From contig JAGXNO010000025.1 in assembly GCA_019894975.1 (NCBI GenBank), positions 1-52,085 of the forward strand: 52,085 nt of DNA. Direction: 5' to 3'. Every line of letters starts with the position of its first letter. Position 1 is the first letter of the stretch. A program made the translations under genes and the position numbers. Below the pieces are notes generated by a model. It was given only the letters and a program-made list of their open reading frames with translations, was not told where the DNA came from and did no database searches. This DNA is from Promethearchaeota archaeon (GTDB taxonomy: Archaea > Asgardarchaeota > Lokiarchaeia > Sigyniarchaeales > SOKP01). Of this stretch, positions 20,591 through 39,445 are shown one piece after another.

Positions 20591-20725
20591 GTGCATCTCA
20601 CGAGAGTAAATTTCTTCACCTTTCTCATCTACTACTGTGATGTGAGCGGCACATGATAGTCAACAGTCAAAACATCGGACTATCATTTCTAAGATATTTA
20701 CTACTCCTTCCGGAACTTCACTCAT
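20576..20725 (-). CDS. vhuU: [NiFe(Se)] hydrogenase small peptide subunit VhuU, selenoprotein (Sec at TGA 20660-20662)
   Basis: Hand translation MSEVPEGVVNILEMIVRCFDCULSCAAHITVVDEKGEEIYSREMHVGLG*. It supplies the L2 motif (DxUxSCAAH) absent from the upstream vhuA, and a SECIS follows. Confidence 0.9.
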
Positions 20726-20758
20726 CTTTTTTATTCACACTCTAAATTTTGATTTAGT

Positions 20759-22063
20759 TTATTTGATCCATGGATCCGGTAATTTAAGGCTTTCTAAAAT
20801 TTTGTCTTCAAACACTTGCTTAGCCACGTGCATCAGTGTTTTTTCGATACCCGCGATGTTGTGGTTCGTCGCTACTAAAAGATTAGCCTTCTTTACTATA
20901 CCTTCACTATCACCGAACAAATGATATAATAAAAGACCTCTTGGTGCTTCGACTAATCCAACACCCTCTCCTTCTCTGGGTACTATGTCTAAAGTTTTAC
21001 AGTCCGGATTCACGATATCTGGATCTTGAAGCAATGTCGCAATCATTTCGATAGATTCTACTAATTCAATTAATCTAGCCCAATGATACGCAAATGTAAA
21101 ATGAGGTGTATTTCCAATTTTGGCCCTCATTGCTTTCAATGCTTCGTCAGCTAATGGCGTAGCCATTTTATCAGCCGCATTAATCATCGCTAGAGTATTA
21201 GCACGATAAATGCCATCAGGATATCCAGCAGGCTTATAATACATGTGTGTAGCGTAAGAATGCGCGGGAATATGCTCTCCCATGCATTCTAAATACTTTT
21301 GAGGTGCATAATCGAATTTTTCTCCTTCTGGAGACACCATTCTAATATCCCCCTCATAAATATCATGAACACCATTTTTAGTCATCCCTGCGTACCAAGT
21401 AGGAACATTACCTACATTAGCTACGACATCCCAATAATCTTCGACAACCTTCAATCCGATTTCAACAGTTTTTTTAGACCATTCTACTTGATCATTGATT
21501 TCAGCAATAAATTTATCACGAGTTACTTCGTCTAAGGCTTTTTTCATACCGCCTGGAATACAAACAATTGGATGAATTGATTTACCTCCAATAGCAGCAC
21601 ATAATTTCTGTCCAAAATCCATCATTTTCAATGCCATTGCGCCAACATCTGGCATCTTATTGATTACATGAACTACATTCCTCAATGCAGGATCAGCAAA
21701 GGGTCCTAATAAGAAATCAGGAGCAGCTAAAGCGTAAAAGTGAAGTGCATGTGAACTATATTGCTTTGCATTAATTAAGAGTTGTCTTAATTTTTTTGCA
21801 GGTTCTGGAATCTGTACTCCCCACGCATCTTCTACTGCTTTAGTTGGAGCGATATGATGAGGAATAGGACAAATTCCGCAGATTCTAGGAGTAATTCTAC
21901 TTACGTGTTCCATGTAACGACCTTCAAGAAACTTTTCAAAGAATCTTGTTGAGGTGATGTTAAATTGAACATCTTGCACTTTTCCATCATCGCCTAATAC
22001 TACTCTCAACCCACCATGCCCTTCTAAACGAGTGACAGGCTCTACTTCTATAGTTTTTACCAT
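20759..22063 (-). CDS. vhuA: F420-non-reducing (group 3c) [NiFe] hydrogenase large subunit, split type
   Basis: EPVTRLEGHG, L1 motif RICGIC, EAPRG. Ends ...LPDPWIK without the C-terminal DPCxxC motif. Confidence 0.92.
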   Translation of the reverse strand: MVKTIEVEPVTRLEGHGGLRVVLGDDGKVQDVQFNITSTRFFEKFLEGRYMEHVSRITPRICGICPIPHHIAPTKAVEDAWGVQIPEPAKKLRQLLINAKQYSSHALHFYALAAPDFLLGPFADPALRNVVHVINKMPDVGAMALKMMDFGQKLCAAIGGKSIHPIVCIPGGMKKALDEVTRDKFIAEINDQVEWSKKTVEIGLKVVEDYWDVVANVGNVPTWYAGMTKNGVHDIYEGDIRMVSPEGEKFDYAPQKYLECMGEHIPAHSYATHMYYKPAGYPDGIYRANTLAMINAADKMATPLADEALKAMRAKIGNTPHFTFAYHWARLIELVESIEMIATLLQDPDIVNPDCKTLDIVPREGEGVGLVEAPRGLLLYHLFGDSEGIVKKANLLVATNHNIAGIEKTLMHVAKQVFEDKILESLKLPDPWIK

Positions 22064-22067
22064 CTTT

Positions 22068-23387
22068 TTATACGCCTCCTTTTCTTGATGCTAATGTAAA
22101 TTTTTCAAAAGTACCTACAGGATCTTTTACCTGATCAAGTAGATCACGTTTCGATAGACTCACATTAAACTGTTTTAACACTGTATCGGCAAATCTCTCT
22201 GCTTGATTAACACCCCATTTGGTTTGACCAAAACAACCACTACATGGAGCATTAACCTTTATACACATACCACCACAGCCAGCTTTAGTGACAGGACCCA
22301 TACAGATATAACCTTGTTCAATAAGGCAATCCTCCAAATTAGGGAGTCCTTCATAATCTCTCAAAACTTTTGTCATAGTAGATTTGCTACCTATAATTCT
22401 TGGACATGTATCACAGACATTTGAAATATCCGTGAAATCACGATTTTCTTTTAAGAATCCCAATAATTTTCCAGCGATTTCTTCGGTAGTTGGAGGTAAC
22501 CCTGCTAACGGTGTTGTAACACTTCCACGTATCTTAATTTGCTTTAAGATATCTCCCGCTAAATCAAATCCTGCCATCAGTGGAACATTTAAGAATAGAG
22601 TTAAGAACTCATACAAATTCTTTATATCCCCTGAACTGAGTTTACCAGGTTTTTTAACCATTTTATTTAGTTTCTCAGCTCTAGAATCGACAGTTTTTGC
22701 TGGGCCAAAACAACCAACACATGGGTTTCCATTACTAGTACATTTTAAACTACATCCTATACTAGTAATTGGTCCAAAACAGAGTTTTTCCGCATCTAAT
22801 AAGCAATTTTCTTTTATACTGCAATCATTGCAATATGCTAGATCATTCATAGGGAAAGGTTTTTGTCCTAACAGAAAAGCTATTGCAGAAACAATACCTT
22901 CCGGTTTTGGAGGACATCCTGAAATATAAGCATCTACTTTAACTACCTCATCAATAGGAACGATCTTATCTCTAAAACCAGGCATATGTTGAGTTGGTTC
23001 TCCACCACTTTCATCAGCTATACTTTCTACCTCAGAGAATTTCCTCTTTACTAAATCGTCTTTATCCCATTGGTTAGCTAGTCCGTGTACATTTCCATAA
23101 CAGGAACAAGAACCAAATGCAATAACGAGGAGACATTTCTTCCTCATTAATTCAACATTTTCATGATCTTCATTAGTCCTAATAGATCCCTCAATAAAAC
23201 CGACTAAGATAGAACCATCTTCTCTTGCCTTCAATGAGTCATGTTTAAAATCCACTACTGCTGGCCAGTAAACTATTTCGAGTGCTGGGAGAACTGGTAA
23301 CAACCCTAAATGAACATTTAACAAGGATTGATGACATCCCCAACAATCGGAAAGTTGCATAAATGCTACTTTAACTTTTACTGACAT
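22068..23387 (-). CDS. vhuG: Group 3c hydrogenase small subunit with duplicated C-terminal Fe-S module
   Basis: DCWGC, FIEGS, FGSCSCYG, SGCPP, and two copies of CxxC...CL...CxGPxT.GC...C....PCxGCFG. Confidence 0.88.
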   Translation of the reverse strand: MSVKVKVAFMQLSDCWGCHQSLLNVHLGLLPVLPALEIVYWPAVVDFKHDSLKAREDGSILVGFIEGSIRTNEDHENVELMRKKCLLVIAFGSCSCYGNVHGLANQWDKDDLVKRKFSEVESIADESGGEPTQHMPGFRDKIVPIDEVVKVDAYISGCPPKPEGIVSAIAFLLGQKPFPMNDLAYCNDCSIKENCLLDAEKLCFGPITSIGCSLKCTSNGNPCVGCFGPAKTVDSRAEKLNKMVKKPGKLSSGDIKNLYEFLTLFLNVPLMAGFDLAGDILKQIKIRGSVTTPLAGLPPTTEEIAGKLLGFLKENRDFTDISNVCDTCPRIIGSKSTMTKVLRDYEGLPNLEDCLIEQGYICMGPVTKAGCGGMCIKVNAPCSGCFGQTKWGVNQAERFADTVLKQFNVSLSKRDLLDQVKDPVGTFEKFTLASRKGGV

Positions 23388-23725
23388 ATTTGTCACAATT
23401 TTGTTTTTTATTTTTTATTTTTTTAAATTTGCTAATTTATTTTAAAAAAAATTAGTTGAGATAGTGTATTGTGAAAATTATTAAAAAATTTCTAATTCTC
23501 GTTTTGAATTGTAGAATAAAATGTAAAACAAGATCTTACATTATGGATGGAAACTTCTACTAATATTTTAAAAAAAACTATTAAATTCCTTTAATTGATC
23601 TTTATTTTTTCATATTTTGTATGAATTAGATCAAATCTAATAATGGATTTATGAATACCAAAAGAAATTGTGCCTAGAAAACCAAAAATTTAGAGATACT
23701 AATTTGAATAAAGAAGGTTTAATCT

Positions 23726-24289
23726 CTAAAAATTACCACAACCAGAACATTTATTATCAAGGTAAGCAGCACAATTAGCACAAATATTCCCACATTGACT
23801 TTCCATACTTTCTTGACTAAATAGGTTAAGAGGAAGAAATTTAGGTAAAATAAGATCTGAGGCAAAAATGGAAGCTGTATGTAAAATTCCCTTTTTATTT
23901 GTAGGACCACAAAAATTAAGGTATCGATGTAAAACATCAGTATTTTGACCAATAATTCCTAAGATTAAATTATACTGACCAGTCACGGGAGCTAGTAAAA
24001 ATACTCTTGGACAATCCTTATAGGCTTCAATAATATTTTGCACTGCATCATAGTTTTGCATTTCCATTAATAAAAATACAACTTTATATTGAAGTTTAGT
24101 AATATTTGTATTCGCTTGAACTTTAAGAATGCCTTTTTCTTCTAATTTTGTAATCCTTTTTGCAATTCCCGTATGACTCATAGTGTCAGTGCTAGATTTA
24201 AAAATAGTTTTTTCTAAGTTTGTTAAACTCTCACGACCATTGCTAAAGAGTGCTTTTAATATTTGCTTATCAATACCATCTAATTGCAT
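23726..24289 (-). CDS. Lrp/AsnC family transcriptional regulator with Cys-rich C-tail
   Basis: N-terminal LDGIDKQILKAL...RITKLEEKGIL HTH, RAM-domain TGQYNL, and tail CGNICANCAAYLDNKCSGC. Confidence 0.85.
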   Translation of the reverse strand: MQLDGIDKQILKALFSNGRESLTNLEKTIFKSSTDTMSHTGIAKRITKLEEKGILKVQANTNITKLQYKVVFLLMEMQNYDAVQNIIEAYKDCPRVFLLAPVTGQYNLILGIIGQNTDVLHRYLNFCGPTNKKGILHTASIFASDLILPKFLPLNLFSQESMESQCGNICANCAAYLDNKCSGCGNF

Positions 24290-24565
24290 AATTACTTTCT
24301 AATTAAGGAACTATATTTAATAATATCTTTGTTCTCAGTTTTTAAAACTTAATGCTTATAAATAATTTAATGGAAAACATTTGACAGAAGAGAGTAAAGC
24401 AACTTAGATTATTTAGCAAAATTATTATTTTAGAGATTAACCCTTACAAGATTTTAGCTCTTTTGGTGCGACTGCCCATCATTTTCGTTCCCAGAAATAA
24501 TATTGTTCTGATAATTTAAAATAAAGAAGATAAACTATTCAATTGATCCAAATTGCCGACACAAG

Positions 24566-24580
24566 TTTTCAAATTGAAAC
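24566..24580. promoter_or_regulatory. Palindromic operator-like site (consensus GTTTCAnnTTGAAAC)
   Basis: TTTTCAAATTGAAAC, ~150 nt upstream of the wHTH gene. Related copies at 25160 and 33621. Confidence 0.4.
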
Positions 24581-24728
24581 TATAAATCATAAAAAGGTCA
24601 GAAATTAAAACTGAATTGAAGGGGATTGTTTAGAATAGCTACATTACATAAGTATTAAAAGGAATTAGTTACTTTTCTAAACTAAAAAACCTAATAAATA
24701 ATATTCCATTGATTGGAGAATTTACGTT

Positions 24729-24986
24729 ATGATCGAAAGTAGTATCTATTTGTTACAAGATTATTCAACTCATGAGAAATTATTATCATTATCTCCCTCA
24801 GGAAAATTCATTCTATACCTTTTAAAAAGGAAAGGACCACTAAGTCAAAAAGATATCATAAAAAGAACTCTCCTTTCTAAGAGAACAGTTGTATATTCTT
24901 TAAAAAAGTTATATGAAGCCAATTTTATTAAGAAACTTACGGATAATAAGGATAAACGACTTCGATTTTATGAAGTTCTTATATAA
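24729..24986 (+). CDS. MarR-like winged-helix regulator
   Basis: LSPSGKFILYLL..KGPLSQKDI...LSKRTVVYSLKKL...DKRLRFY. Confidence 0.8.
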   Translation: MIESSIYLLQDYSTHEKLLSLSPSGKFILYLLKRKGPLSQKDIIKRTLLSKRTVVYSLKKLYEANFIKKLTDNKDKRLRFYEVLI

Positions 24987-25329: not shown

Positions 25330-25986
25330 ATGAGAAGAAATAAAATTTACATATTTACTATTTTAACAGTATTCTTTGTATCTATTATTGGGGGAGCTTC
25401 TGCTTATCATGAATACATTTATACTTTTGACTACTCTCATACTGCAGGATGTCATAATGGGAACGCTAACGATGGAGAAAGCTCAACGGGAAATTTAACG
25501 ATAACACTTACTCCAAGTGGAACCTTAGAAACCCTACAGGCATTTACCATATCAGTTTTTATACATAATTTTACAGAGCTTGACAATAGTGCTTATCAGA
25601 ATAGAACAACCATTGGAATTTCAAAAGATCTTGGAAATAATTCAGCATTTCTTAGAGATGTAAGTGATGTATCTTTTTCGAGGAGAGTTAAAGTTGATCA
25701 ATATGGAAGTGATTTGACACCTACAGTACTTGGAGCTATAGCACCAGAAACACCAGGAACATATGAACTTGTTATTACAGCAGTCGCAGCGATGAATCAA
25801 TCAGATGCAAGTGCTTATAATTTCACTTTTGCTAAAGGTACTATTAGTGTGACTGTAGTAGCGTCTACGGGAGGAGGAGGTACAATTTCAGGAGGTCTTC
25901 TTACAATTATTATTGGGAGTACTTTTGCTGTATCTACTGTTTTAATAGTAACGATGCGAAAAAGAATAAATAAAAGAGAACTATAA
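25330..25986 (+). CDS. Exported, C-terminally anchored protein with single-Cys HTAGCH motif (putative atypical c-type cytochrome)
   Basis: Signal peptide ending GASA, HTAGCH (the only Cys), beta-rich domain with APETPGTYEL, Gly linker, C-terminal TM and basic tail. Lies just upstream of ccmC. Confidence 0.65.
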   Translation: MRRNKIYIFTILTVFFVSIIGGASAYHEYIYTFDYSHTAGCHNGNANDGESSTGNLTITLTPSGTLETLQAFTISVFIHNFTELDNSAYQNRTTIGISKDLGNNSAFLRDVSDVSFSRRVKVDQYGSDLTPTVLGAIAPETPGTYELVITAVAAMNQSDASAYNFTFAKGTISVTVVASTGGGGTISGGLLTIIIGSTFAVSTVLIVTMRKRINKREL

Positions 25987-26138
25987 ATCAAATTTTTTAC
26001 CTTTTTTTTTTTATAATCTTAAATTTTAAATGCTAAAAAAAAATGTCTTAAATGTAAAAGAAGTAATTCCTTCAAACACCAAAAAATTAGCCAAATTGTA
26101 TGGATGTATATTAAAATTAAAATTTAGTAAACCCTATT

Positions 26139-26870
26139 ATGAATATCCCAAAATTGTTCAAGACTAACTTCTTGTTAATCCTTTCATTAGCAATGTTATT
26201 AATTAACTTGCTTCTTATTGTAATATTAACTTCATTTAACCTTATTGTGTGGGGAAGTCCCAACCGATTAGTATATATAATCTTTTTCTACCATGTTTCT
26301 GGAGCTTGGTTAGCATATCTCTCATTTGGTATTAGTTTATTATTTCATGTTTTATATTTAAAGAAAAGAAACGTTAATTGGAATCGTTTAGGTACAAATA
26401 GTATAATTGTCGGTGTATTTTTTACCGCATTTACATTGGCAACAGGTTCTTTATGGTACAATGCTACTTCTGGAGATTACAATAATATATTCTGGCAGTG
26501 GAGTGATACCAGACAAACTATGACTTTAGTATTATTACTTTCTTATTTAGCTTTTTTAATTTTTAGGAGTATGATTGAGGATAAAGAAAAAAAAGCGAAA
26601 TTGTCCTCAGTATTAGGTATTGCGTTATTCCCTACAGTTCCTCTAAGTTATTTCTCCGCAATAATATTTACTAGCTTACATCCATTAATTAGTCCTACTC
26701 CTGGAGAGACAGGTAATATTTATTGGGATCCAGTGAAAATTTTTATGTTACTTTTTAATTTGATTGCAATTACTATCCTATTCTTCTATGTTATACAAAA
26801 ATTAGGAGAATTAGATAAGGAAAAAGAAAGATTAGATAAAATAATCCAAAAAAGATTAATAGAGGAATAA
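26139..26870 (+). CDS. ccmC: Cytochrome c maturation protein CcmC
   Basis: 6 TM, FFYHVSGAW (His), ATGSLW...FWQWSDTRQT (divergent WWD domain), TSLHP (second His). Confidence 0.88.
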   Translation: MNIPKLFKTNFLLILSLAMLLINLLLIVILTSFNLIVWGSPNRLVYIIFFYHVSGAWLAYLSFGISLLFHVLYLKKRNVNWNRLGTNSIIVGVFFTAFTLATGSLWYNATSGDYNNIFWQWSDTRQTMTLVLLLSYLAFLIFRSMIEDKEKKAKLSSVLGIALFPTVPLSYFSAIIFTSLHPLISPTPGETGNIYWDPVKIFMLLFNLIAITILFFYVIQKLGELDKEKERLDKIIQKRLIEE

Positions 26871-26875
26871 ATAAA

Positions 26876-27028
26876 ATGGCGTTAGAAAATTTATATCCAG
26901 ACTTAGTAACAATAACATTTAGTTATATATTATTTTGGACAGTTATTATATTTCTAATATTATACCCTAAACTTCGCCTAAAAAGAATATTGAAAAGAAT
27001 TAAAAATTTGGAGCAAAATTTAAAGTAA
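26876..27028 (+). CDS. ccmD: CcmD-like small membrane protein (50 aa, not in the ORF track)
   Basis: Hand translation MALENLYPDLVTITFSYILFWTVIIFLILYPKLRLKRILKRIKNLEQNLK*. One TM plus a basic amphipathic tail, tightly packed between ccmC and ccmE. Confidence 0.7.
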   Translation: MALENLYPDLVTITFSYILFWTVIIFLILYPKLRLKRILKRIKNLEQNLK

Positions 27029-27032
27029 TTAG

Positions 27033-27380
27033 GTGTTTATTGTGAAAAAATCTAAAATTATTGCAATTGTAGGAATAGCTATCTCTGTTATAGTAATAGT
27101 TGCAATGCTCACAACAGCAGCTCGTCCATACCTCAAAGTTTCTCAAGTTACCTCAAATCCCGCTAAGTATGATAATAAAGAAATTCAAGTAATAGGTGTT
27201 GTACAAGGATTTGCTGGTAGTGATTTTAATCTAACTGAAAGTGGTAATAGTATTTTTATTGACATAAATGGGTTAACTCCTCCAACTGATTTAGAAAATG
27301 GAATACAAGTAGTAGTAAAAGGAGTATTTAATTCATCTTTAGTTTTAACTGCAAATCAGATCCTTACTCAATGTAGCTAG
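27033..27380 (+). CDS. ccmE: Heme chaperone CcmE, Cys-type, C-terminally truncated
   Basis: N-terminal TM, PYLKVSQV, OB-fold with VVVKG. Ends ANQILTQCS* where homologs have AxExLxKHDENY or KCPSKY. Confidence 0.8.
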   Translation: MFIVKKSKIIAIVGIAISVIVIVAMLTTAARPYLKVSQVTSNPAKYDNKEIQVIGVVQGFAGSDFNLTESGNSIFIDINGLTPPTDLENGIQVVVKGVFNSSLVLTANQILTQCS

Positions 27381-27386
27381 TTTTAA

Positions 27387-28112
27387 CTAGTCATATAAAA
27401 GAAATTCTGAAGTTAATGTCATGATTGAGCTCATTAGTACAATATGAGCACTAAAAAATATTATTTCATAATAAAGCCCTGATATTAGTTCTCCTTCTAA
27501 AATCTTTATATTAATTGATATAATTGGAGTAATTATTGGTAAAATTAAAGGAAACAATAAAATTGGTAAAATAAATGATTTATTTTTTACATACATTGAT
27601 AAAGCAGAGACTAAACTTCCGCAAATAGACAAGTCCAATGTAGGCAACAAAACTCCTAAACCAATAAAAATTAATAGTTGATTCAAGCTGAAATTACTAA
27701 TTGATGGTGCAGAGATAAAAACACTAAAAAGAAAGAGTATTACCTCGACAAAAGTTAATAATATAAAGCAAAAAATGGTTTTACTCATAAGAATTAGATT
27801 AGCAGATACAGGTGATGAAATTAATCCTCCTATTGTTCCAGAATCTTTTTCTTTAACAAAAAGTTTTGCCATAATGTAAACGGTTGTAAAGAAAATAATA
27901 AGCCAGTTTTCAATAACAAAAATTTCTAGGGGCATAATTTGATATTGGGTTCCAAAATTATACACAGAAGAAAATATGAAAATCGAAATTATATCAAAAA
28001 GAAAAATTGAAAATAAATCATTGATTTGACGGAGTTCAGATTTAAGATCTTTATTTAGTATTACCTTAAGTAATTTCAATCTTGATTTTAAGTTTATTTT
28101 CTCATTTTTCAA
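27387..28112 (-). CDS. ccmB: Heme exporter permease CcmB
   Basis: KDLKSELR, FVKEKDSGTI, ILPILLFPLILP, 6 TM. TTG start after GGTGA. Confidence 0.88.
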   Translation of the reverse strand: MKNEKINLKSRLKLLKVILNKDLKSELRQINDLFSIFLFDIISIFIFSSVYNFGTQYQIMPLEIFVIENWLIIFFTTVYIMAKLFVKEKDSGTIGGLISSPVSANLILMSKTIFCFILLTFVEVILFLFSVFISAPSISNFSLNQLLIFIGLGVLLPTLDLSICGSLVSALSMYVKNKSFILPILLFPLILPIITPIISINIKILEGELISGLYYEIIFFSAHIVLMSSIMTLTSEFLLYD

Positions 28113-28124
28113 TATACTATCACC

Positions 28125-28871
28125 TTAAAAATATGATTTAATATGAGTTTCATTAAATTCTTCACTTGCAATGATTTTATTGATTTTTCCTCTTTTTAGA
28201 ATTATTAAATCATCACAAATTTGCTGGAATACATCAATTTTGTGTGTTGTGAGAATTATCGATATGTTGTTATTCTCTTTTAATTCATTAAAGAAATTTA
28301 TCAACATTGTGGTTGCATTGTAATCTAATCCCGAAAAGGGTTCATCCAAAAACAATATGGAGGGCTGATGTATCAAGACTCTAATTAATTCTACTTTTTG
28401 TTTCATTCCATGAGATAAAATTCTAACCGGTTCGTCGATCCAATCTGTTAAGGTGAATTTCTTACAAAGTTGGTCAATTCGGGTTTTTATCTTTTTTTTT
28501 TCAAAATTCAGATGTAAATTAGCATAATATTTTAAATTTTCAAAAATAGTTAATTCTTCAAAAAGAAATGATTCATCTGTAGTAATTCCAATATTTTGTT
28601 TTATGATATTAGAATTTTCCTCGTAATTCATTCCACTAACCAATATATTCCCAAATGTCGGTTTCAGAAGTCCACATAAAATTTTAATTAAAGTTGTTTT
28701 TCCAGCCCCATTTGCTCCTGCAATCCCGAATATTGTGTGCTCTCTAACGTTAAACGAAATTTTTTTTAGTGCAAAGAAATACCCAAATTGTTTAGAGACA
28801 TTATTACACTCTATTATATCTCTATTGGATTTAACCATGGTAATATTATCCAAACTTTTGAAAGAATTCAA
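28125..28871 (-). CDS. ccmA: Heme exporter ABC ATPase CcmA
   Basis: GANGAGKTT, LSHGMKQK, LFLDEPFSGLD. Adjacent to ccmB. The true start may be the ATG at 28838. Confidence 0.82.
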   Translation of the reverse strand: MNSFKSLDNITMVKSNRDIIECNNVSKQFGYFFALKKISFNVREHTIFGIAGANGAGKTTLIKILCGLLKPTFGNILVSGMNYEENSNIIKQNIGITTDESFLFEELTIFENLKYYANLHLNFEKKKIKTRIDQLCKKFTLTDWIDEPVRILSHGMKQKVELIRVLIHQPSILFLDEPFSGLDYNATTMLINFFNELKENNNISIILTTHKIDVFQQICDDLIILKRGKINKIIASEEFNETHIKSYF

Positions 28872-28909
28872 AATTTAATATAGAAAAGTAATTAAAAATA
28901 AAAAAATAA

Positions 28910-31900
28910 TTATTTAAAAAATCGCTTTTTCCTGGATGTTTTTATTATTAGCACTATTCCAGCAATTAAAGTTCCATAAATACTAAATTGAACTACTAAG
29001 TCAGTAATTTCTTTTATGGTCATTGTGGTGACGCTAGTTGATTGCACCGTAACTAAAATATTCTCACTTACCGAATTCCAGTTGTCATTAGTATCTCTTG
29101 CATGAATTGTAAAGGGTATATCTCCTGTTGTACTAGGAACCCAGTTGTCAAATTCCCACGTATTTCCTGCTGTATTTATCATCGTATGATTAGAACCTTC
29201 AAATTCAATAAGAACTTCACTAACATTTGAGAAATCTATAACATTAACTTGAATAAATGTAGATTGTCCCAAATATGTAGGTTCATTTCCCTTTACTAAA
29301 TTGGAAATTGCAGGACCTGATGTATCTATCACTGTAATATTGTTATCTAACGATACGGTGTTGTTAATTAGGTCAATTGCATAGAGAGAATAGATTTTTA
29401 ATCCAGTAGTATATGGAGTCCAATTATTATAACGCCAAGTTATTCCTTCTACAAATGTCATCGTATAATTGATGCCTTCAGTCTCAAATAACACAAGATT
29501 TATTGGAGAAAAATCCAGTATCTCCACTTGTATTATTGCTGTATCTCCTAATTCTAAGGGATCTGAAATCTCAACTAAGTTTACTAAAGTTGGTGCCGTA
29601 GTATCTATAACTGAAATATTGTTTTCTAAATTATTCCAATTATTGTTTATGTCTTTAGCATAAATGACATAATCTTTTACTCCTATAGAGGTTGGAATCC
29701 AGCTACTATATTCCCATATCGCTCCGCCTATATTAGATAGTGTATAATTAATACTATCAATTTCAATTAATACCTGAGTAATAGGTGCTAAATCAATAAC
29801 TTCAATTGAGATTATTTCGGTTTGTCCTAACTCTATTGGATCTGCACTCTCTACTAGATTTGTCAATGAAGGTTGTATTGTGTCTTGTACAGTTATTGAA
29901 TTGGTTAAATAAACCCAATTTCCCTTGGTATCTTCGGCATAAATTGTATACAATTTTAATCCTGTATTAGTGGGTGTCCAACTATTATATTCCCAGGTGT
30001 TTCCCCCGGCATTGGCCATCGTATAATTTACTCCATTAATTTCTATAAGCATTTGATTAATACCAGATAAATCTGTAGCATTGAGTTGAATTGTTTCTAT
30101 TTGCCCTAATTCTAAAGGATCAGCACTCTCAGATAACATAGATAAGGTAGGACCGTTTGTATCCACTACAGTGATATCATTTGTTAAAGAATTCCTATTT
30201 CCTTCATTATCATCAGCGTATATTGTGTAGGATTGTAATCCTGTGCTAGTTGGTGTCCAGCTATCATATTCCCATGTCGATCCCCCGATATTAGACATCG
30301 TATAATTTACACTCTCGATCTCTATTATTACTTGACCAATTCCCGATAAATCTGTAACATTGATTTGAATATTTTCGGTTTGTCCAAACTGTAATGGATC
30401 ATCACTTTCTAATAAGTTAGATAGGATCGGACCTGTTGTATCTACAACAGAAATATCCTCGATTAAAGAGATATCATTATTACTCGAATCACTAACATAA
30501 ATAGTATATGATTTTAAACCGGTAGACGTAGGATTCCAGCTGCTATATTCCCAAGTTACTGTATTTATTTTCGACATTGTATAATTAGTTCCTTCAATTT
30601 CGATTAATACAGAGCTAATCGGAGAATAATCAATAATATCAACCTGAATCATTTCTGTTTGCCCTAATTCTAAGGGATCAGCGTTTTCATACAAGTTTGT
30701 AAGTACGGGTGCCGTTGTATCTATTACTTCAATAAGATCGGATGTAAAATTCCAATTGTTAGAATTATCTTGAATATAGATAAAATATTGATATATTCCA
30801 ACTGTATCTGGTATCCATGTGTCATTTAACCATGTATTCCCACCTATATAATACATTGAATGGTTCACGCTTTCATATTCAATTTTGACTTGGTTGATTC
30901 CTGATAAATCTGTTGTATCTATTGTAATCGCTATTGAGTTTCCCAATTCAAGTGGGTCGACGCTTTTTATTAAATTTCCGAAATTTGGGGGTGTCGTATC
31001 TTGGACTAAAATACTACCACTAATTTGGTTCCAATTATTTAAAGAATCATTAGCATAAACTTTAAATAATTTTATTCCTGTAGTATTCGGTTCCCATATA
31101 TGTTGATACCTTACTCCTCCTATATTTGTCATAGTATAATTTATTCCGCTAATTTCAATAAATACTATACTAACTCCCTCAGAATCACTAATATCAACCT
31201 CAATAACCTCTAATTGACCTAATTCTAGAGGATCCTCACTTTTAGATAAGTTTTGAATTGTTGGTCCAGATGAGATTATAACCTCAATAGAACCATTTGT
31301 CATATTAAGATTATCACTATTATCTACCATGTAAATAGTGTAGTTGAATATATTTTCGGATGCAGGTTGCCAATTTGCCCATCTCCAAGTATCAAATCCC
31401 ATAAAATTCATAGTGTGGTTAACATTATCATATTCAAGAAAAATATTTTTCACTCCTGAACCGGGTGCATCATAAACTTCAATTGAAATTGTTTCATTTT
31501 GCCCTAATGGGAGTGGATCCGCACTTTCAATTAAGAAATTATATGTTGGTGCAGTTGTATCAATTACAGTAATATCGCTACTTATTGAATTCCTATTTCC
31601 TTCATTGTCAGTAACATAAATTGCGTAAGATTTTAATCCTGTGCTAGTGGGCGTCCAGCTATCATATTCCCATGTCGCTCCGCCTATATTAGTCATCGTA
31701 TAATTTACACTCTCAATTTCTATTACTACTTGACCAATCCCCGATAAATCTGTGGCATTGATTTGAATAATTTCCGTATGCCCTAATTCTAATGGATCAA
31801 CGCTCTCGATTAGATTTGAAATGGTTGAAACTGATGTGTCAATTACTGTAATATCACTACTTATTGAATTCTTATTCCCTTCATTGTCAGTAACATAAAT

Positions 31901-33451
31901 TGTGTAGGATTTTAATCCCGTGCTAGTGGGCGTCCAGCTATCATATTCCCATGTCGCTCCACCTATATTAGTCATCGTATAATTTACACTCTCAATCTCT
32001 AATAACACTTGATTAATACCTGACAAATCAGTAGCATTGATTTGAATAACTTCCGTTTGCCCCAATTCTAGAGGATCCGCATTTTCGACTAGACCAAAAA
32101 GATTTGGAGGAATAGTATCCTGTACGGTTATAGAATTCGTTAAGGTGTTCCAATTTCCTTCACTATCGCTAGCATATATTGTATACGATTTTAATCCTGT
32201 GCTAGTAGGAGTCCAGCTATCATATTCCCATAATGATCCACCTACATTAGTCATTGTATAATTTATACTATCAATCTCTATTAATACTTGACTAATAATA
32301 GATAAATCTGTAACATTGATTTGAATAGATTCTGTTTGCTCTAATTCTAATGGATCAGCACTCTCAACTAAGTTAGTTAAAGATGGTAGTACTGTATCTT
32401 GAACTGTGATAGAATCACTCAATGAATTCCAATTTCCATCAGCATCACTTGCATAAATCGAATAAATTTTTAATCCAGTATTTATCGGATTCCAACTATT
32501 ATATTCCCAAATAGTTCCTAGGATATTTGTCATAGTATAATTCACACTTACAATTTCTAGTAATACTTGACTAATGCCCGATAAATCTGTAACATTAATT
32601 TGTATTGTTTCTATTTGTCCTAATTCTAAAGGATCTGCACTTTCAATCAAATTAGATAGTGTCGGAATTGTTGTATCAATTACATTAACTGAACCACTAA
32701 ATGAATTCCAACTTCCCTCTGTATCAGAAGCATAAATTATATAATTTTTTAACCCTGTTATATTTGGGGTCCAATTATATTCATAAGTATTACCAACAGT
32801 GTTAGACATTGTATAGTTTATACTTCCTAATTCAATAAGAACTGTACTTACGGTGGTTTCAGAATCAGTTACATCTACACTGACGGTTTCTTCTTGTCCT
32901 AATTCTAATGGATCCGCACTTTCACCTATATTACTAAATTGAGGTGGATTGTTTAGAGCTTCTATTGTTAATATGAAATCTCCATGTGCAAAAAAGGAAC
33001 TTGATCCCCCCGCTCTATAGATTGCATCAGCATGAAGTGTATAGGATTGTTCAGTGGATGGTGCAGTGACTTGGAAGTTAATAATAATAGAATTTCCAGA
33101 TCCGTCTATTGAAGCAGATTTTTGAGTGGCATCAAAAGCAAAGTTTTTATTATCTCCTCTTCCAGGTGAACCACTTGGAAAGCCCACAGCAATACCACTT
33201 CCCTGAGCCTCTGTGAAGCTATTGATTTGAATACTCACTGTAAATATTTCATTGGGGCTGATTGATGTTCCTGAACTAGATGAAATTGAAATATATCCCG
33301 AACTGCTTTGGGTTATATCTCCATGACAACTAGCGTGTCCCTCTCCTGAAAAATCATCAAATTGTGAAGTTCTGGCTATAGCTAAACCAACAATTGAAGA
33401 AATTATTATGACTGTAATTAAGAAAGCTTTAATTTTTCTATTTATTCTCAT
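28910..33451 (-). CDS. Giant surface protein: signal peptide, single-Cys HASCH head domain, 14 tandem ~93-aa Ig-like repeats, C-terminal TM anchor
   Basis: GEGHASCHG (the only Cys). Repeat consensus ESADPLELGQTExIQINxTDLSGIxQVxIEIxSVNYTMxNIGGxTWEYxSWTPTSTGLKxYxIYAxDxxGNxN. Ends FSIYGTLIAGIVLII-KTSRKKRFFK. Confidence 0.8.
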   Translation of the reverse strand: MRINRKIKAFLITVIIISSIVGLAIARTSQFDDFSGEGHASCHGDITQSSSGYISISSSSGTSISPNEIFTVSIQINSFTEAQGSGIAVGFPSGSPGRGDNKNFAFDATQKSASIDGSGNSIIINFQVTAPSTEQSYTLHADAIYRAGGSSSFFAHGDFILTIEALNNPPQFSNIGESADPLELGQEETVSVDVTDSETTVSTVLIELGSINYTMSNTVGNTYEYNWTPNITGLKNYIIYASDTEGSWNSFSGSVNVIDTTIPTLSNLIESADPLELGQIETIQINVTDLSGISQVLLEIVSVNYTMTNILGTIWEYNSWNPINTGLKIYSIYASDADGNWNSLSDSITVQDTVLPSLTNLVESADPLELEQTESIQINVTDLSIISQVLIEIDSINYTMTNVGGSLWEYDSWTPTSTGLKSYTIYASDSEGNWNTLTNSITVQDTIPPNLFGLVENADPLELGQTEVIQINATDLSGINQVLLEIESVNYTMTNIGGATWEYDSWTPTSTGLKSYTIYVTDNEGNKNSISSDITVIDTSVSTISNLIESVDPLELGHTEIIQINATDLSGIGQVVIEIESVNYTMTNIGGATWEYDSWTPTSTGLKSYAIYVTDNEGNRNSISSDITVIDTTAPTYNFLIESADPLPLGQNETISIEVYDAPGSGVKNIFLEYDNVNHTMNFMGFDTWRWANWQPASENIFNYTIYMVDNSDNLNMTNGSIEVIISSGPTIQNLSKSEDPLELGQLEVIEVDISDSEGVSIVFIEISGINYTMTNIGGVRYQHIWEPNTTGIKLFKVYANDSLNNWNQISGSILVQDTTPPNFGNLIKSVDPLELGNSIAITIDTTDLSGINQVKIEYESVNHSMYYIGGNTWLNDTWIPDTVGIYQYFIYIQDNSNNWNFTSDLIEVIDTTAPVLTNLYENADPLELGQTEMIQVDIIDYSPISSVLIEIEGTNYTMSKINTVTWEYSSWNPTSTGLKSYTIYVSDSSNNDISLIEDISVVDTTGPILSNLLESDDPLQFGQTENIQINVTDLSGIGQVIIEIESVNYTMSNIGGSTWEYDSWTPTSTGLQSYTIYADDNEGNRNSLTNDITVVDTNGPTLSMLSESADPLELGQIETIQLNATDLSGINQMLIEINGVNYTMANAGGNTWEYNSWTPTNTGLKLYTIYAEDTKGNWVYLTNSITVQDTIQPSLTNLVESADPIELGQTEIISIEVIDLAPITQVLIEIDSINYTLSNIGGAIWEYSSWIPTSIGVKDYVIYAKDINNNWNNLENNISVIDTTAPTLVNLVEISDPLELGDTAIIQVEILDFSPINLVLFETEGINYTMTFVEGITWRYNNWTPYTTGLKIYSLYAIDLINNTVSLDNNITVIDTSGPAISNLVKGNEPTYLGQSTFIQVNVIDFSNVSEVLIEFEGSNHTMINTAGNTWEFDNWVPSTTGDIPFTIHARDTNDNWNSVSENILVTVQSTSVTTMTIKEITDLVVQFSIYGTLIAGIVLIIKTSRKKRFFK
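29050..32950 (-). repeat. Intragenic tandem repeat, ~279-bp period, 14 units
   Basis: Near-identical DNA units, e.g. those starting at 31560 and 31839 (279 bp apart). Other units are more diverged. Confidence 0.85.
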
Positions 33452-33620
33452 TAAAAACCCTTTTTTTTAAATAAATCCTTCGTGTTAACGAAAGGATAAA
33501 ATATTAGATATAAGATTTAAGTTAGGAAATCTCAAACATAATAAAAGATTTATTAAAACTGGTTACTTTAAACCAATCTATATAGTTCAATTTCATAATC
33601 TAACAAGATTTCCGTTTTTA

Positions 33621-33635
33621 GTTTCAGTTTGAAAC
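33621..33635. promoter_or_regulatory. Palindromic operator-like site
   Basis: GTTTCAGTTTGAAAC, 170 nt upstream of the ATG of the giant surface protein. Confidence 0.45.
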
Positions 33636-33693
33636 AGGTGATTGGGAATAAATTCCCTTAATTTTATTTCGATTTGGAAAGAATGAGTAATAT

Positions 33694-35421
33694 TCAGTCT
33701 TTTTTATGCTCCTTCTTAAGAAAAAAAGTTCTTAAAATTGATGGAATTATTCCTACCAAAAAAAGTATGAACCCGGTTATGAAAAAGATATCTTGAAAAG
33801 TCTCAAACATTGAAGGAATTATTGTTCCCACAAGTATGAACGAGATACCTGAATGAATTATTGTTTTAGAATTTATTCTGAAAAAGTATGCAATTCCTTT
33901 TTTCATTGTAAAATTTCTTGTAAACTTGTAGAATGAAGAAATAATAGAGATAAAGTAAATTACTATTATAGGATTTATCCATATTCCCGAAAAAAACAAA
34001 AATGAAAAAGATAAAACTGATTGAATTGATACACCTAAAATTATTATTAATCCTATCCATTTTAGATCAAAATATTCCCACAGAGAACAAAATACAAGTG
34101 TTACAGCTAAACCAATTGCTAGAATTAAGGAAGTTATAATATAGAAGTCTGGTCCGATGTAAATTTCATTAAGAGGAAAATAAGTTGACAAAATATTAGT
34201 TAATGGGGTAATTAAAAGCCCAAAAATGCATACAAAAGATAAACCAAATAAGAATAAATAACTCAAATAATCAAATAGAAGTTTTTTGTTTCTATATTCT
34301 TCCATCAAATAATCTAGTACAATATATATTACATAAAGCGAAAAGCCTGTCAATATTAATCCCACTAGGACAGTCCATACTATCAACTCAGATCCTCCGG
34401 TGAAAGAATGAATTGGTGATATTCCCCCTCTTGTAACTAAGGTAGAATAGATTATTGATAAGAAAATAATTCCTACATTGATTTTTATTAAATTAGGGTT
34501 TTTCTTTTTGAATATTATAGTATGAAAAAAGGCAGTACTAAAAAGCCATGGAATTAGAGAAACAGTTTCAACAGGATCCCATCCCCAATACCTCCCCCAA
34601 TTTAATGCAATTTTAGCCCAATAAGCTCCTAATCCAATGCTTAAGGTGAGAACTAACCATCCAAATTTTACAGAAAAATTATAGAACTCTTGCTCATACG
34701 AATTCATTAATTCTAAGTTCCGTGTAGTAATTTCAGCAATAGTTATGGTAAAGGGGATCAAAAAAATACCATAAGCAATAAACGTAAAAAATGGGTGCCA
34801 TATCATAAACGGTGACATTAAAATAGGATCTAGACTTGGATGGAGATTTGGATTCCCATTTATGAATGCAGGTGATATATCGAGTTTAAAAGTATTCACT
34901 GATAATAAAATGAACAGGAAAACAATTGATATAACCAATGATATTAGAACAGAACGTATAAAAACCAAGTCTTCCCTATTTTGGTTTTTAATTCTATAAA
35001 AGTAAACTATAACCGAATTGAACATCATCCAAGTCAAAATCGAACCATTCTCTCCTGCCCATATAAAAACAATTTTATAAATAAGAGGAAGTGCGGAATT
35101 GCTGTAGTTCATTACATATACAATTTCAAATATATTATTTAGAAAACAATACATTAAAAGGATAAATACAAATAAGGTCAGAACCATGTTGAGCGTAGAT
35201 AGAAGTTGATAATTCAATTTTTTTACAATTAGTAAGAAAAAATCAACTATCAATACAATAATTAGAATTATAACTAGAGAATTCCCAAGAAAGGATATAA
35301 CAATTATACGGGAGTTAATTACGATTAAATCTAAAATTATGGGAACAATTACAAGCAAACATAACAATAAACTGAGATTTATGATAAGGGTTCTTTTGGA
35401 TGATAGATCCTTGAGCTTCAT
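33694..35421 (-). CDS. ccmF: Cytochrome c heme lyase CcmF
   Basis: WAGENGSILTW, WHPFF, WWD domain GAYWAKIALNWGRYWGWDPVETVSLIPWL, AFFH, RGGISPIHSF, IIHSG. Confidence 0.92.
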   Translation of the reverse strand: MKLKDLSSKRTLIINLSLLLCLLVIVPIILDLIVINSRIIVISFLGNSLVIILIIVLIVDFFLLIVKKLNYQLLSTLNMVLTLFVFILLMYCFLNNIFEIVYVMNYSNSALPLIYKIVFIWAGENGSILTWMMFNSVIVYFYRIKNQNREDLVFIRSVLISLVISIVFLFILLSVNTFKLDISPAFINGNPNLHPSLDPILMSPFMIWHPFFTFIAYGIFLIPFTITIAEITTRNLELMNSYEQEFYNFSVKFGWLVLTLSIGLGAYWAKIALNWGRYWGWDPVETVSLIPWLFSTAFFHTIIFKKKNPNLIKINVGIIFLSIIYSTLVTRGGISPIHSFTGGSELIVWTVLVGLILTGFSLYVIYIVLDYLMEEYRNKKLLFDYLSYLFLFGLSFVCIFGLLITPLTNILSTYFPLNEIYIGPDFYIITSLILAIGLAVTLVFCSLWEYFDLKWIGLIIILGVSIQSVLSFSFLFFSGIWINPIIVIYFISIISSFYKFTRNFTMKKGIAYFFRINSKTIIHSGISFILVGTIIPSMFETFQDIFFITGFILFLVGIIPSILRTFFLKKEHKKD

Positions 35422-35594
35422 GAAAATTACCTAAAATGTTATTATTAAACAATTTTAATAAATATTTTCGCTTTCAAACAAAATAGGGGAAATTATTGCG
35501 GTAATATTTTAAAAAAAATATAGTTTTTAAATTATATCGATCAAATTTTTAAATCTAATATTCAAATTAAAAACAATGTCTTATTTTATTATAA

Positions 35595-36479
35595 TTGGAA
35601 AGTAAAATGAAAAAGAAAACTCTCATCCTATTCATAAGCATTATCGGTTTATTATCTATATCATTATTAATCTATGGAACTGGAAGACCCAATTATGGTG
35701 ATACTCATGATTCAAGCGGTTGTCATGATAACTTTGGAGGGTACACAATTTCAAGCACCGTACCAGTAACAACTACAGTAAATAATGTCTCATACACTAT
35801 ATTTAACGTAACGGCTACAGGATCAAACTTATTTGTACAGGCATACCCCGGAGCTAATGATAATGATAAATTTATTATCCTCCCAACATCTAGTAGAATA
35901 GTTGATGCCTCAGGAGATGATTTAGATCCTAATCCTAATGCGATTACTATTGCATTTAATGTCACACCTACCTTAGTACAGAATTCCTATACTCTTTTTA
36001 TATTAGCAGGAAATAATTTGACTGGCAGTCCTCCGTTTGCTTATGTTGAAATTATAATTGGAGCCCCTCCTAAATTTGATCTATTATCTAAAATATATGA
36101 TCATTTAGGCTTGTATTTAGGATTACCCGCTTTATTATTAATATCAATTGCTACAGTTCTAGTACTGGTAAATGAAAATAAATTCGTGAAAGTGCATGGT
36201 ATTTTATCAGGGAGTGCTTGGATATTAACTGCAATCAATTTATCTGCAGCGCTTATAAAAATATCACCTAATGCTTGGTTCAGTGTTTATCCCCTTATTT
36301 ATCATGTTCCTCATATAATTTTGGGATTTATAGGTTTAATTTCAGGATTTCTTAGCATGTTTTTTGGAATCGCAGCAGAAAGAAAACCTGCTAAAATAAC
36401 GGGTTACATTGCATTATTAAGTTGGTGGGCTGCTTTCTTTTTAGGATATTTTCTAAATAACAATCTTTTATTACTATAA
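35595..36479 (+). CDS. Exported single-Cys (HDSSGCH) domain fused to a cytochrome b561-like membrane domain
   Basis: Signal anchor, HDSSGCH (the only Cys), beta-rich domain, then 4 TM with His in DHLG, KVHGILS and YHVPHIILG. ATG at 35607 is possible. Confidence 0.65.
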   Translation: MESKMKKKTLILFISIIGLLSISLLIYGTGRPNYGDTHDSSGCHDNFGGYTISSTVPVTTTVNNVSYTIFNVTATGSNLFVQAYPGANDNDKFIILPTSSRIVDASGDDLDPNPNAITIAFNVTPTLVQNSYTLFILAGNNLTGSPPFAYVEIIIGAPPKFDLLSKIYDHLGLYLGLPALLLISIATVLVLVNENKFVKVHGILSGSAWILTAINLSAALIKISPNAWFSVYPLIYHVPHIILGFIGLISGFLSMFFGIAAERKPAKITGYIALLSWWAAFFLGYFLNNNLLLL

Positions 36480-36500: not shown

Positions 36501-37982
36501 TTGAACCAATCTAACAATAGTAAAGTAGAAAACCGAACAATAAAAAAAATAGGGAAACAAGATCTTGAGAGTCAATTTTTAGAATTTATATCTTCATATC
36601 ATGTAAGCACTAATCCTTATGAACTTGAATCCGCTTCTGCAGATCTGACGTCTCTACCCTCGTATCATTATAAATTTAAAAAGCAATATCTTGCTAGTCA
36701 TATTATCCGTCCAGCTAATGTTAACGAACTTTCACGAGCGATTAAAAAGTGTAGAGAACGTAATATTCCTGTTACGATTAGAGCTGCAGGGACTTCTTGT
36801 TTTTCTTCAGCGACACCTTCAAAAGGAGGTGTTATTATAGACATGCGTAGATTAAATAAAGTCCTTGAAGTAAACAAAGAAAAAATGATTGTTAAGGTTG
36901 AAAGTGGAATTTCTTGGTTAAATTTAATAGAAGCACTAGCAGATTATGGACTTGAGCCAAAAACTTTTCCAACCAGTTTCAAAACATCCTGTGTAGGAGG
37001 TTTTATTGCAACTCCAGGAAAAGCGGGAATAGGAGTAGTAAAATATGGACCAATGGAAGATTCGATTAATTCATTAGATTTTGTTAAACCTGATGGATCT
37101 ATAGTTAAGATTTTAAAAGATTCTAACGACGAAATTACTTTAAAAGATATTATTGGAACTTACGGTATATACGGAGCAATTTCAAGTGTTGAATTGTCTG
37201 TGACGACGCTTAAAACATCATTAGAGATAATAGGTTATGGTTTTGATTCAATAGGGCAAGCCTTTAATTTTTATGAAAAACTCAAGGTTGAACTCCCAAA
37301 TAAACCTTTATTTCTCTCAATTTCAGAGAGAGATTTCGAAAAATATTCGCATATAAATTTCCCAGAACGTGATTGGTTAGTCTGGGCAGCTTTTTATGAC
37401 GATCCTGAAGCAACTTCAAAGAGTGTATCAGATGTTAAATATTTTGCCTCGAAAATGAACGCTTTCGAAGTAGATAGTTCGTATTTAAAAGAAAAGTGGC
37501 GTGATATAAGCGATGCTGAAGTATCAATTGGTTTATCAGCGAGAAATTTAATATTTCAAGAATATTGGATTTCCGATATGAGATTAGAGAGTTTTATAGA
37601 TTATTATGTAAAAGAAAGGAGGAAATATAAATTCCCCACTGCTTCCTATGCTATTTCGGGTGAAAAAGGATGGACTAGGGTAAAGATCTTTGGACTTACG
37701 GACATTAGTAAACCACGAGAATTTTTCACAGTAAAAGCTTTTTTACATGATTTATCTGTTAAAGCATTTACCCAAGGAGATAGGCTCTATACTATCGGGA
37801 TAGTTAACTCCTTTTACCTCATCAAGTATAAACCAGAAGAGGTAATGAAATGGAAGATTCTAAAGGATAAATTAGATCCAAAAGATTTATTTAATTCATA
37901 TCGATTAACTAAAGCAAGAATGAAATTTTGGAGGGTTGCTTTGCTGTTTAACACAGCGAAAATATTATACAAAATTTTTTAA
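36501..37982 (+). CDS. FAD-linked oxidoreductase (GlcD/D-lactate dehydrogenase-like, VAO/PCMH fold)
   Basis: IIRPANVNE, VTIRAAGTS, GGVIIDMRRLN, SCVGGFIAT, GTYGIYGAI, and C-terminal LKDKLDPKDLFN. Confidence 0.82.
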   Translation: MNQSNNSKVENRTIKKIGKQDLESQFLEFISSYHVSTNPYELESASADLTSLPSYHYKFKKQYLASHIIRPANVNELSRAIKKCRERNIPVTIRAAGTSCFSSATPSKGGVIIDMRRLNKVLEVNKEKMIVKVESGISWLNLIEALADYGLEPKTFPTSFKTSCVGGFIATPGKAGIGVVKYGPMEDSINSLDFVKPDGSIVKILKDSNDEITLKDIIGTYGIYGAISSVELSVTTLKTSLEIIGYGFDSIGQAFNFYEKLKVELPNKPLFLSISERDFEKYSHINFPERDWLVWAAFYDDPEATSKSVSDVKYFASKMNAFEVDSSYLKEKWRDISDAEVSIGLSARNLIFQEYWISDMRLESFIDYYVKERRKYKFPTASYAISGEKGWTRVKIFGLTDISKPREFFTVKAFLHDLSVKAFTQGDRLYTIGIVNSFYLIKYKPEEVMKWKILKDKLDPKDLFNSYRLTKARMKFWRVALLFNTAKILYKIF

Positions 37983-38104: not shown

Positions 38105-39445
38105 ATGAGTGAAGGTAAAGAAAAAGAAGATCTAAAAAATGTTGTTACTACTGGGCCGCCTGTAGCGGGACTTGTATCTCCTTCAAGAGATAACCTCAGA
38201 GAACCTTCAGATGAGTTTAAAAACAAACATTCTTATGAGCGTTGTACTCATTGTGGGTATTGTCGTCATGTTTGTAAGGTGTATAATACTTCATGGAGCG
38301 AATCTGATTATGCTGGGGGTAGGAACAGAATTATCAAAGCATTAGATCGTGGAGATATAAAATTCAAGAAGGATGATATTATTCCTCCAGTTTTTCGTTG
38401 TATGTTGTGTGGTAATTGCAAAGTTGTATGTCCAGTTGGAGTTGACACTTTAAGTGTTTTTCAAAACTTTCGGAAAGAAGTTGTAAAAAGGGGAGCAATG
38501 CCAGAAAAATTAAAAATGATGAAAAGCTCAATTATGGAAAATAATAACCCATTCCTTGAAAAACACGTTGATAGATTTAATTGGTGTGATTCTTGTGAGG
38601 AAGGAGCTAAGGCTTATGAACGAGCAAAACAGAGAATTACCGCTAAAGAAGAAGAAACTCCTTATTCTGTTGGTTATTTTATGGGTTGTACATCTTCATA
38701 TAGAAACAAAGAACTTGTGTCGGCGACAAGTCAAGTGTTAGATAAATTGGGAGTTGAATTCGTTCTTTTTCCTGAAGAAAAGTGTTGTGGTTCTGTTTTA
38801 TTTCGAACTGGATTAGAAGAAGATGCAAATAAACTTGTAAAGAGTAATACTGAGATGATTCGTAAAAGTGGTGTAAAAGAGGTTGTTTTTTCATGTTCTG
38901 GGTGTTTTTCGACTTTTAATCTAGAGTATTCGAGAATTGCAGATTATAATTTAGGATTTGATCTTTACCATTTAACTCAGTATGCTTTAAAGATTGTAAA
39001 AGAAAAAAACCTAAAAATTAGATATACAAAACGATCAAAGGAAGATCCCTTACTCATAACATATCATGACCCTTGTCATTTAGGTAGATATTGTGGGGTT
39101 TACGAAGAACCTAGGGAGCTTATTCGAATGATTGAAGGAGTAAAATTATTTGAAATGAAGCATAATAAAGATATGGCTTGGTGCTGTGGAGCTGGAGGCG
39201 GAGTGAAAGCATTATATGGTGATATAGCAGCTGAGGTTGGTAGGGATAGGATAACTGAGACTCGTGCTTGTATGGTCCGAATACGCGAAGACCGTCTAAA
39301 AGAAGCATTAGAAACGCCTGCGGAAGTTCTTGTTAGCTCTTGCGTATTCTGCAAAAACAATTTATTTCAAGTTGCAAATGAAGATAACTCACCAATTAAA
39401 GTTATGGATATTTCTCAGCTTCTACTCGATTGTGAATTTTATTAG
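38105..39445 (+). CDS. Fe-S oxidoreductase, HdrD/GlcF-like (two [4Fe-4S] plus two CCG domains)
   Basis: CTHCGYCRHVC, CMLCGNCKVVCP, YFMGC...CCG...CSGC, YHDPCHLGR...CCG...CVFC. Confidence 0.88.
   Translation: MSEGKEKEDLKNVVTTGPPVAGLVSPSRDNLREPSDEFKNKHSYERCTHCGYCRHVCKVYNTSWSESDYAGGRNRIIKALDRGDIKFKKDDIIPPVFRCMLCGNCKVVCPVGVDTLSVFQNFRKEVVKRGAMPEKLKMMKSSIMENNNPFLEKHVDRFNWCDSCEEGAKAYERAKQRITAKEEETPYSVGYFMGCTSSYRNKELVSATSQVLDKLGVEFVLFPEEKCCGSVLFRTGLEEDANKLVKSNTEMIRKSGVKEVVFSCSGCFSTFNLEYSRIADYNLGFDLYHLTQYALKIVKEKNLKIRYTKRSKEDPLLITYHDPCHLGRYCGVYEEPRELIRMIEGVKLFEMKHNKDMAWCCGAGGGVKALYGDIAAEVGRDRITETRACMVRIREDRLKEALETPAEVLVSSCVFCKNNLFQVANEDNSPIKVMDISQLLLDCEFY

Follow-up and report, generated by a model that had tools for sequence, protein, structure and literature searches.

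Can System I of cytochrome c maturation (Ccm) serve proteins that offer it a single cysteine? The system is thought to need two, and the E. coli machine stalls on CcmE with single-Cys substrates (PMC3268396). The question is raised by a genome of Lokiarchaeia (Promethearchaeota archaeon, assembly GCA_019894975.1), in which positions 1 to 52,085 of contig JAGXNO010000025.1, hereafter the window, carry an 11-kb island where ccm genes are interleaved with three exported proteins, here called clients A, B and C (Table 1). The coordinates of the clients, their single-Cys motifs and this interleaving, as recorded in an earlier note made from the letters of the window, proved exact on recheck. The genome (3.93 Mb, 95% complete) was also searched beyond the window, and it was compared with relatives in its own Asgard family (family code f1) and in others. 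We surmise that the clients are probably monoheme c-type cytochromes, each with a β-sandwich like that of the choice-of-anchor V family and with covalent, Ccm-dependent heme on a Cys-His site. The island is real and conserved and, as far as our literature coverage shows, undescribed: no description of HxxCH, of Ccm in Lokiarchaeota or of CxxCH maturation in Asgards was found, most subscription papers lying outside that coverage.

Three single-cysteine clients and their conservation

Each client chain contains one Cys, so that the CxxCH of a c-type cytochrome is absent; the heads are exported, and their motif is homologous to a CxxCH site. In client B the head is carried on a stalk of 14 immunoglobulin (Ig)-like repeats of about 93 amino acids (aa) each. 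Client C is 294 aa long from a TTG start and 290 aa from the ATG at 35607, and its membrane domain consists of four helices with three conserved His (His170, His201 and His240) and no fourth. Comparison of this tail with cytochrome b561/DUF420-like proteins, in which four heme-ligand His are expected, gave Atlas scores of 0.76-0.77, which are leads only; the three His would suffice for one outer heme b.

The motif H-x2-4-C-H is present in exactly three of the 415 exported-type open reading frames (ORFs) of the genome, a set comprising those with a hydrophobic segment near the N-terminus and a length of 150 aa or more. All three lie inside this one 11-kb island, and the motif is therefore not a product of chance. 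The earlier note had seen no exported CxxCH protein in the window; this extends to the whole genome, where none of 32 CxxCH ORFs looks exported on inspection of its N-terminus. A, B and C are also the only head-domain proteins of the genome, and the only plausible clients of its Ccm.

Among 161 genomes of the class, 28 gave a ccmC like this one, and these 28 belong to two f1 genera. The conservation of the motif, on which the earlier note had made its case depend, is borne out by 72 heads from 27 related genomes: 67 carry H-x2-4-C-H, four have Cys-His without an upstream His, one has C-G-H and none has CxxCH. In an alignment of 72 A/B heads Cys and His are invariant throughout, and since His accounts for about 1% of head-body residues, the conserved motif His is not an effect of composition. 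Synonymous codons vary at the Cys and at both His while the residues are kept. One A-type protein (L028:9149-9925) has an insertion after the Cys and before the His, giving H-E-H-C-G-H. The note had also asked for co-occurrence, and heads and this ccm clade do occur together, in the same f1 genomes (14 with heads and 15 with ccmE among the 68 of the phylum sample); the two are physically linked, so that their co-occurrence does not count as separate evidence. The genes mostly keep one order, running from A (one or two copies) through ccmC-D-E, a converging ccmB-A, an optional B, ccmF and C to a flavin adenine dinucleotide (FAD)-linked oxidoreductase and a CCG protein. A CcmE-based metagenome scan contributed two short loci only, and a promoter scan remained at chance level.

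None of A, C and the B head has a Pfam match, and a PDB sequence search returned short spurious matches only. The best family match of the B head, and likewise of CxxCH relatives, is choice-of-anchor V (NF041895), in every case below the cut-off of 42 bits: the B head reaches 30.5 bits (E 3e-7) and the highest score obtained is 39.6 bits, while A and C give no match. No experimental study of the family is known to us. The model of the B head is an Ig-like sandwich (predicted local distance difference test, pLDDT, 92.5); Reeler-like and secretion-tail proteins are among the nearest predicted relatives of this head, which agrees with the sub-threshold match. Fold searches lead from the head to generic Ig-like domains and from the C tail to generic four-helix bundles, by which no family is excluded.

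Histidine in the place of the first cysteine

Homologous heads in a second family (f12, probably Thorarchaeia) carry C-x2-4-C-H, the spacer range x2 to x4 being common to both families. Comparison of profiles with these CxxCH heads gave 99.3% for C (E 7e-21) and 99.0% for A/B (E 5e-18), and in the alignment for C the His falls in the Cys1 column. The f12 orthologue of C has the same membrane domain with its three His and precedes the same FAD and CCG genes; a CPSKY-type ccmE and multiheme CxxCH cytochromes are found near it. The same exchange is seen between P0010 (His-type) and P0017 (CxxCH), which are 51% identical and both occupy A's position between hdrA and ccmC, divergent from hdrA genes sharing the same first 75 residues. 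The f12 orthologues and P0017 thus confirm both that CxxCH versions exist in relatives and the suggestion of the earlier note that a His stands where the first Cys would be.

A tree built without the motif columns, and with few columns in all, rejects a clade of all His-type heads (approximately unbiased, AU, p 0.0005), from which it follows that position 1 has switched more than once with Cys-His fixed. The same test leaves a single Loki-type clade standing (AU p 0.56), for which reason we do not take it as proven that His arose independently in the A/B and the C lineages. At L133 a truncated CcmE accompanies two His-type clients and a C with a true CxxCH, at L135 it accompanies a CxCH client, and at L125 a CxxCH protein stands at A's position ahead of a ccmC. 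Since the same Ccm clade is found with CxxCH (L133), CxCH (L135) and His-less clients, to describe the system as dedicated to the single-Cys motif goes too far. It is better described as a Ccm that would need only Cys-His of its clients, with His, Cys or nothing at position 1 and His strongly preferred in f1. The His-less clients of f1 come from three genomes only, which carry divergent CcmF or CcmE paralogues.

Further variants were observed. The contracted form CxCH occurs in homologous heads at L129, L131 and L135, two of these loci having a truncated CcmE. At L029:6713-10980 two exported single-Cys proteins with C-x3-H (CGSGH and CDTGH) adjoin ccmF; they do not match the head profile and look as if the second Cys had been lost. 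In family f19 (L111:18793-19755 and L112:2125-5826) His-less single-Cys heads occur with a CcmF-like gene and no CcmE match.

The interchange at position 1 bears on another explanation of the motif, namely that H-x-C-H is a Cu/Zn site or forms an inter-chain disulfide and that the ccm genes serve an undetected client. Clusters of His and Cys often bind metals, the fold is a generic Ig-like sandwich, and a client could be missing from a genome that is 95% complete; the heads are, however, orthologous to CxxCH heads and share their f1 genomes with ccmE. In addition, the 27 islands contain no CxxCH client, and the multiheme protein of f12 was not found in 135 f1 genomes. We consider a metal site or disulfide highly unlikely.

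The altered Ccm machinery and its neighbours

The genome has a single ccm set, in which CcmA, B, C, E and F, the components that identify System I, are all present, and ccmC, ccmE, ccmB and ccmF pass Pfam cut-offs. The heme ligands are retained as four His and the WWD motif in CcmF and two His in CcmC, where the WWD-type motif has one extra residue. The ccmD-like ORF between ccmC and ccmE is conserved in relatives. Hallmarks of the E. coli type are absent: CcmE carries Cys and no HxxxY, and no match to CcmH (PF03918) was found in the 95% complete genome.

Two changes that the earlier note did not record set the machinery apart. The CxxxY motif has been described as universal in archaeal CcmE (PMC9084895); here its Tyr and the C-terminal tail are gone, the stop standing two residues past the Cys. 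This genome and 25 relatives share the ending Q-C-S-stop, one more ends C-S-T, and Helarchaeota-type loci have the truncated form too; almost every CcmE sampled from the other Asgard families has C-P-S-K/R-Y. CcmF, for its part, is without the outer domain of about 120 residues that normally follows the last His, and PF16327 finds no match in it. Beyond His523 there are 52 residues, and 47-61 beyond the last His in the short CcmFs of the clade, as against 167-195 in six canonical Asgard CcmFs serving CxxCH clients. The short CcmFs form one group, with long-branch warnings. A second CcmE type, ending Y-C-C-D-R-S, occurs at L029 (G005) and L068 (G276) in genomes with His-less clients; G005 also has two tandem ccmF genes and gave no ccmC match with the query used.

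Shortened CcmE and CcmF, together with a patchy distribution, might be taken for signs of a decaying relic without maturation, or of heme that stays bridged between CcmE and client, as in the complex of CcmE, heme and cytochrome that the E. coli Ccm traps with single-Cys substrates (PMC3268396). Set against this are ccm genes that are all intact and conserved across two genera (62-87% identity for ccmC and about 45-77% for ccmF), a CcmE stop at the identical place in 25 genomes, and the retention of Cys and both His beneath varying codons. We consider a bridged or relic state highly unlikely.

The lack of ccmG, ccmH and ccdA, which had been read as a sign that no thiol-reduction branch is needed, holds within the window, and for CcmH throughout the genome. 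It fails for CcdA, which (PF02683 over cut-off) stands on contig C148 beside a membrane-anchored CxxC thioredoxin of TlpA/CcmG-like type; a membrane protein with a PC motif after ccdA (L137:2202-2909, G000:C148) is possibly a second CcdA-like gene. Thioredoxin and CcdA homologues (CcdA 47% identical) also occur in G361, where they separate ccmF from client C, and in G021, where they adjoin single-Cys clients beside the island, and CcdA does not track the island across f1. In Methanosarcina the loss of ccmG/ccdA leaves ordinary CxxCH maturation working (PMC9084895), so that the absence of these genes from the window says nothing of the chemistry. For both reasons we rejected missing ccmG/H as a sign of single-Cys attachment; the claim that a thiol-reduction branch is not needed is left unsupported.

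Just upstream of the island, at 19076-23396 of the window, lie a Mvh/Vhu-type hydrogenase and hdrC-hdrB, conserved in most genomes of f1; in Helarchaeota-type loci this position is taken by hdrA. The island is flanked (23726-24986) by a small MarR-like gene and by an Lrp/AsnC-like regulator whose tail is rich in Cys, and these may regulate it. In relatives the Lrp/AsnC-like regulator is often one of a divergent pair.

Table 1. Clients, ccm genes and downstream operon genes of the island (positions in the window).
Feature	Position	Strand	Remarks
Client A	25330..25986	+	218 aa; signal peptide, H37-x3-C41-H42, beta-sandwich head, C-terminal membrane anchor; orthologues found
A motif HTAGCH	25438..25455	+	sole Cys is Cys41
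ccmC	26139..26870	+	PF01578 E 3e-15; TIGR01191 E 2e-17, below cut-off; His52, His181
ccmD-like ORF	26876..27028	+	50 aa, single helix; named from position and shape only
ccmE, Cys type	27033..27380	+	PF03100 over cut-off; ends Q-C114-S-stop
ccmB	27387..28112	-	PF03379 E 9e-11
ccmA	28125..28871	-	ABC ATPase, syntenic with ccmB
Client B	28910..33451	-	1513 aa; H39-x2-C42-H43 head, stalk, C-terminal anchor
B motif HASCH	33323..33337	-	sole Cys is Cys42
ccmF	33694..35421	-	four conserved His (209, 300, 338, 523), WWD motif
Client C	35595..36479	+	H38-x4-C43-H44 head fused to four-helix membrane domain
C motif HDSSGCH	35706..35726	+	sole Cys is Cys43
FAD-linked oxidoreductase, GlcD-like	36501..37982	+	begins 21 bp after C; order kept in both Asgard families
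Fe-S/CCG-domain protein, GlcF/HdrD-like	38105..39445	+	next gene of C operon; order kept in both families

Proposed mechanism, heme supply and significance

In System I, CcmE holds heme at the 2-vinyl and must be ejected, Cys1 taking the 2-vinyl and Cys2 the 4-vinyl (PMC10663686); the clients retain Cys2, as euglenozoan single-thioether cytochromes do (PMC8262978). We propose that CcmABCD would load scavenged heme b onto Cys114 of CcmE and that, at CcmF, the invariant Cys of the client would add to the 4-vinyl, with the adjacent His as proximal iron ligand. The first His would sit where Cys1 would meet the 2-vinyl, and would either bond it or help to expel CcmE. We rather favour the second role, in which one thioether would be left; a bond to the 2-vinyl, giving a Cys + His linkage, is possible and is put forward with reserve. 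By bonding or by catalysis the client His would solve the release step, to which the short CcmE and the uncapped CcmF would be adapted. The fuller proposition, that these are natural cytochromes with a Cys thioether and a His-vinyl bond, their CcmE and CcmF remodelled so that the client His displaces the CcmE Cys, is doubtful; the existence of His-less clients implies that such a bond is not always required.

For the sixth ligand the free N-terminal amine is weakly suggested, after the example of cytochrome f. That protein has CxxCH, is matured by System II and uses its N-terminal amine as a ligand. The clients resemble it in that the signal peptide is closely followed by the putative heme motif and this by an Ig-like sandwich, and many of their relatives begin x-Pro. 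Superposition of the head on the structure of cytochrome f gave Z 7.9 (root-mean-square deviation 3.4, 118 aligned residues including the motif region) compared with Z 10.2 for the best generic Ig-like domain; no sequence-level match of the heads to cytochrome f was found. As for function, the conserved operon of C, FAD and CCG genes points to a dehydrogenase connected with A and B through the membrane. Electrons would pass from the cytoplasmic FAD/Fe-S dehydrogenase to the membrane heme b of C, to its heme c, and on to A and the stalked B, with an external partner as acceptor or donor, a path to which we give about an even chance.

Several points weigh against covalent heme on these clients or against parts of the mechanism. 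Single-Cys cytochromes are very poor substrates of the E. coli Ccm and trap the adduct with CcmE (PMC3268396), and the loss of the CcmE Tyr and of the CcmF domain could likewise reflect a changed function. Some clients do without the His (4/72, f1), which weakens a required His-vinyl bond, and the head alignment shows no conserved His or Met in the head body as a sixth ligand, which leaves the N-terminal amine as a possibility only. Finally, searches of this genome found neither hemB, hemC, ahbAB or ferrochelatase nor a binding protein of PF01497.

The last of these has less force than it seems. A hemB was found in only one of 135 f1 genomes, but likewise in only one of 76 from f12 and one of 21 from f27, families that use ordinary CxxCH cytochromes. 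Missing heme synthesis is therefore no argument against heme c, and was rejected as such; the pattern suggests scavenging of heme. It could also be enlisted for a relay in which His-type heads bind heme non-covalently, the stalked B capturing environmental heme and passing it to A and thence to CcmC or C, so as to feed an auxotroph. The failure to find hemB in 134 of the 135 f1 genomes or a PF01497 protein here and the 14-repeat stalk of B would fit such a relay. It sits poorly with the invariant Cys of the heads, with the stalked and short heads of f12, which carry two Cys and thus covalent heme, and with the need of CcmE and CcmF for a covalent client, for which the genome offers A, B and C only. 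The sole f1 genome in which hemB was found, G361, makes heme and still keeps His-type A and C: a full hem/ahb operon for heme b (hemB, L, A, C, cobA and ahbA-D-like genes; L156:1914-11583, G361:C2) stands some 13 kb away from its His-type island. This single case connects the island with heme without recourse to the motif. We regard the relay as unlikely and retain covalent attachment as the preferred reading.

What the island represents is System I in altered form, with a novel client motif; it is no new type of system. It resembles the streamlined archaeal System I of Methanosarcina acetivorans (PMC9084895) in having CcmA, B, C, a Cys-type E and F without CcmH, in its unlinked or dispensable CcmG/CcdA and in the retained His and WWD of CcmF. 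It differs in a CcmE that ends Cys-Ser without Tyr, in the missing outer domain of CcmF, in the ccmD-like ORF and in its one-Cys clients. The streamlined system with a CxxxY CcmE goes back to Allen et al. 2006, as far as its citation in PMC4429474 conveys. The euglenozoan A/FxxCH cytochromes c and c1 with KCCS (PMC8262978) likewise keep the second Cys and the His, and a single thioether is expected; those are mitochondrial class I cytochromes with an HCCS-derived synthase and an inert Ala or Phe at position 1, whereas the clients have His, a β-sandwich and Ccm. In E. coli CcmE (His130; PMC10663686) and cyanobacterial GlbN (His117; PMC11951088) a His is bonded to the 2-vinyl, the usual vinyl of Cys1; neither is a mature cytochrome with a Cys + His pair, and the bond is hypothetical here. 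The CxxCK and Cx15CH motifs have synthases of their own (PMC10663686), as the present motif may, but keep both Cys.

A natural one-Cys Ccm with His, Cys or an empty position 1 among its variants would make heme release from CcmE and the order of vinyl attachment testable. A heme-attachment motif of the form H-x2-4-C-H would escape CxxCH surveys such as PMC4429474. No multiheme cytochrome was found in f1, and the clients would imply surface cytochromes, possibly with extracellular electron transfer, in about one-fifth of the sampled genomes of the family. Should the Cys + His-vinyl linkage prove true, these would be the first natural cytochromes of their kind, and through them Lokiarchaeia-type Asgards would have an extracellular electron path hidden from view.

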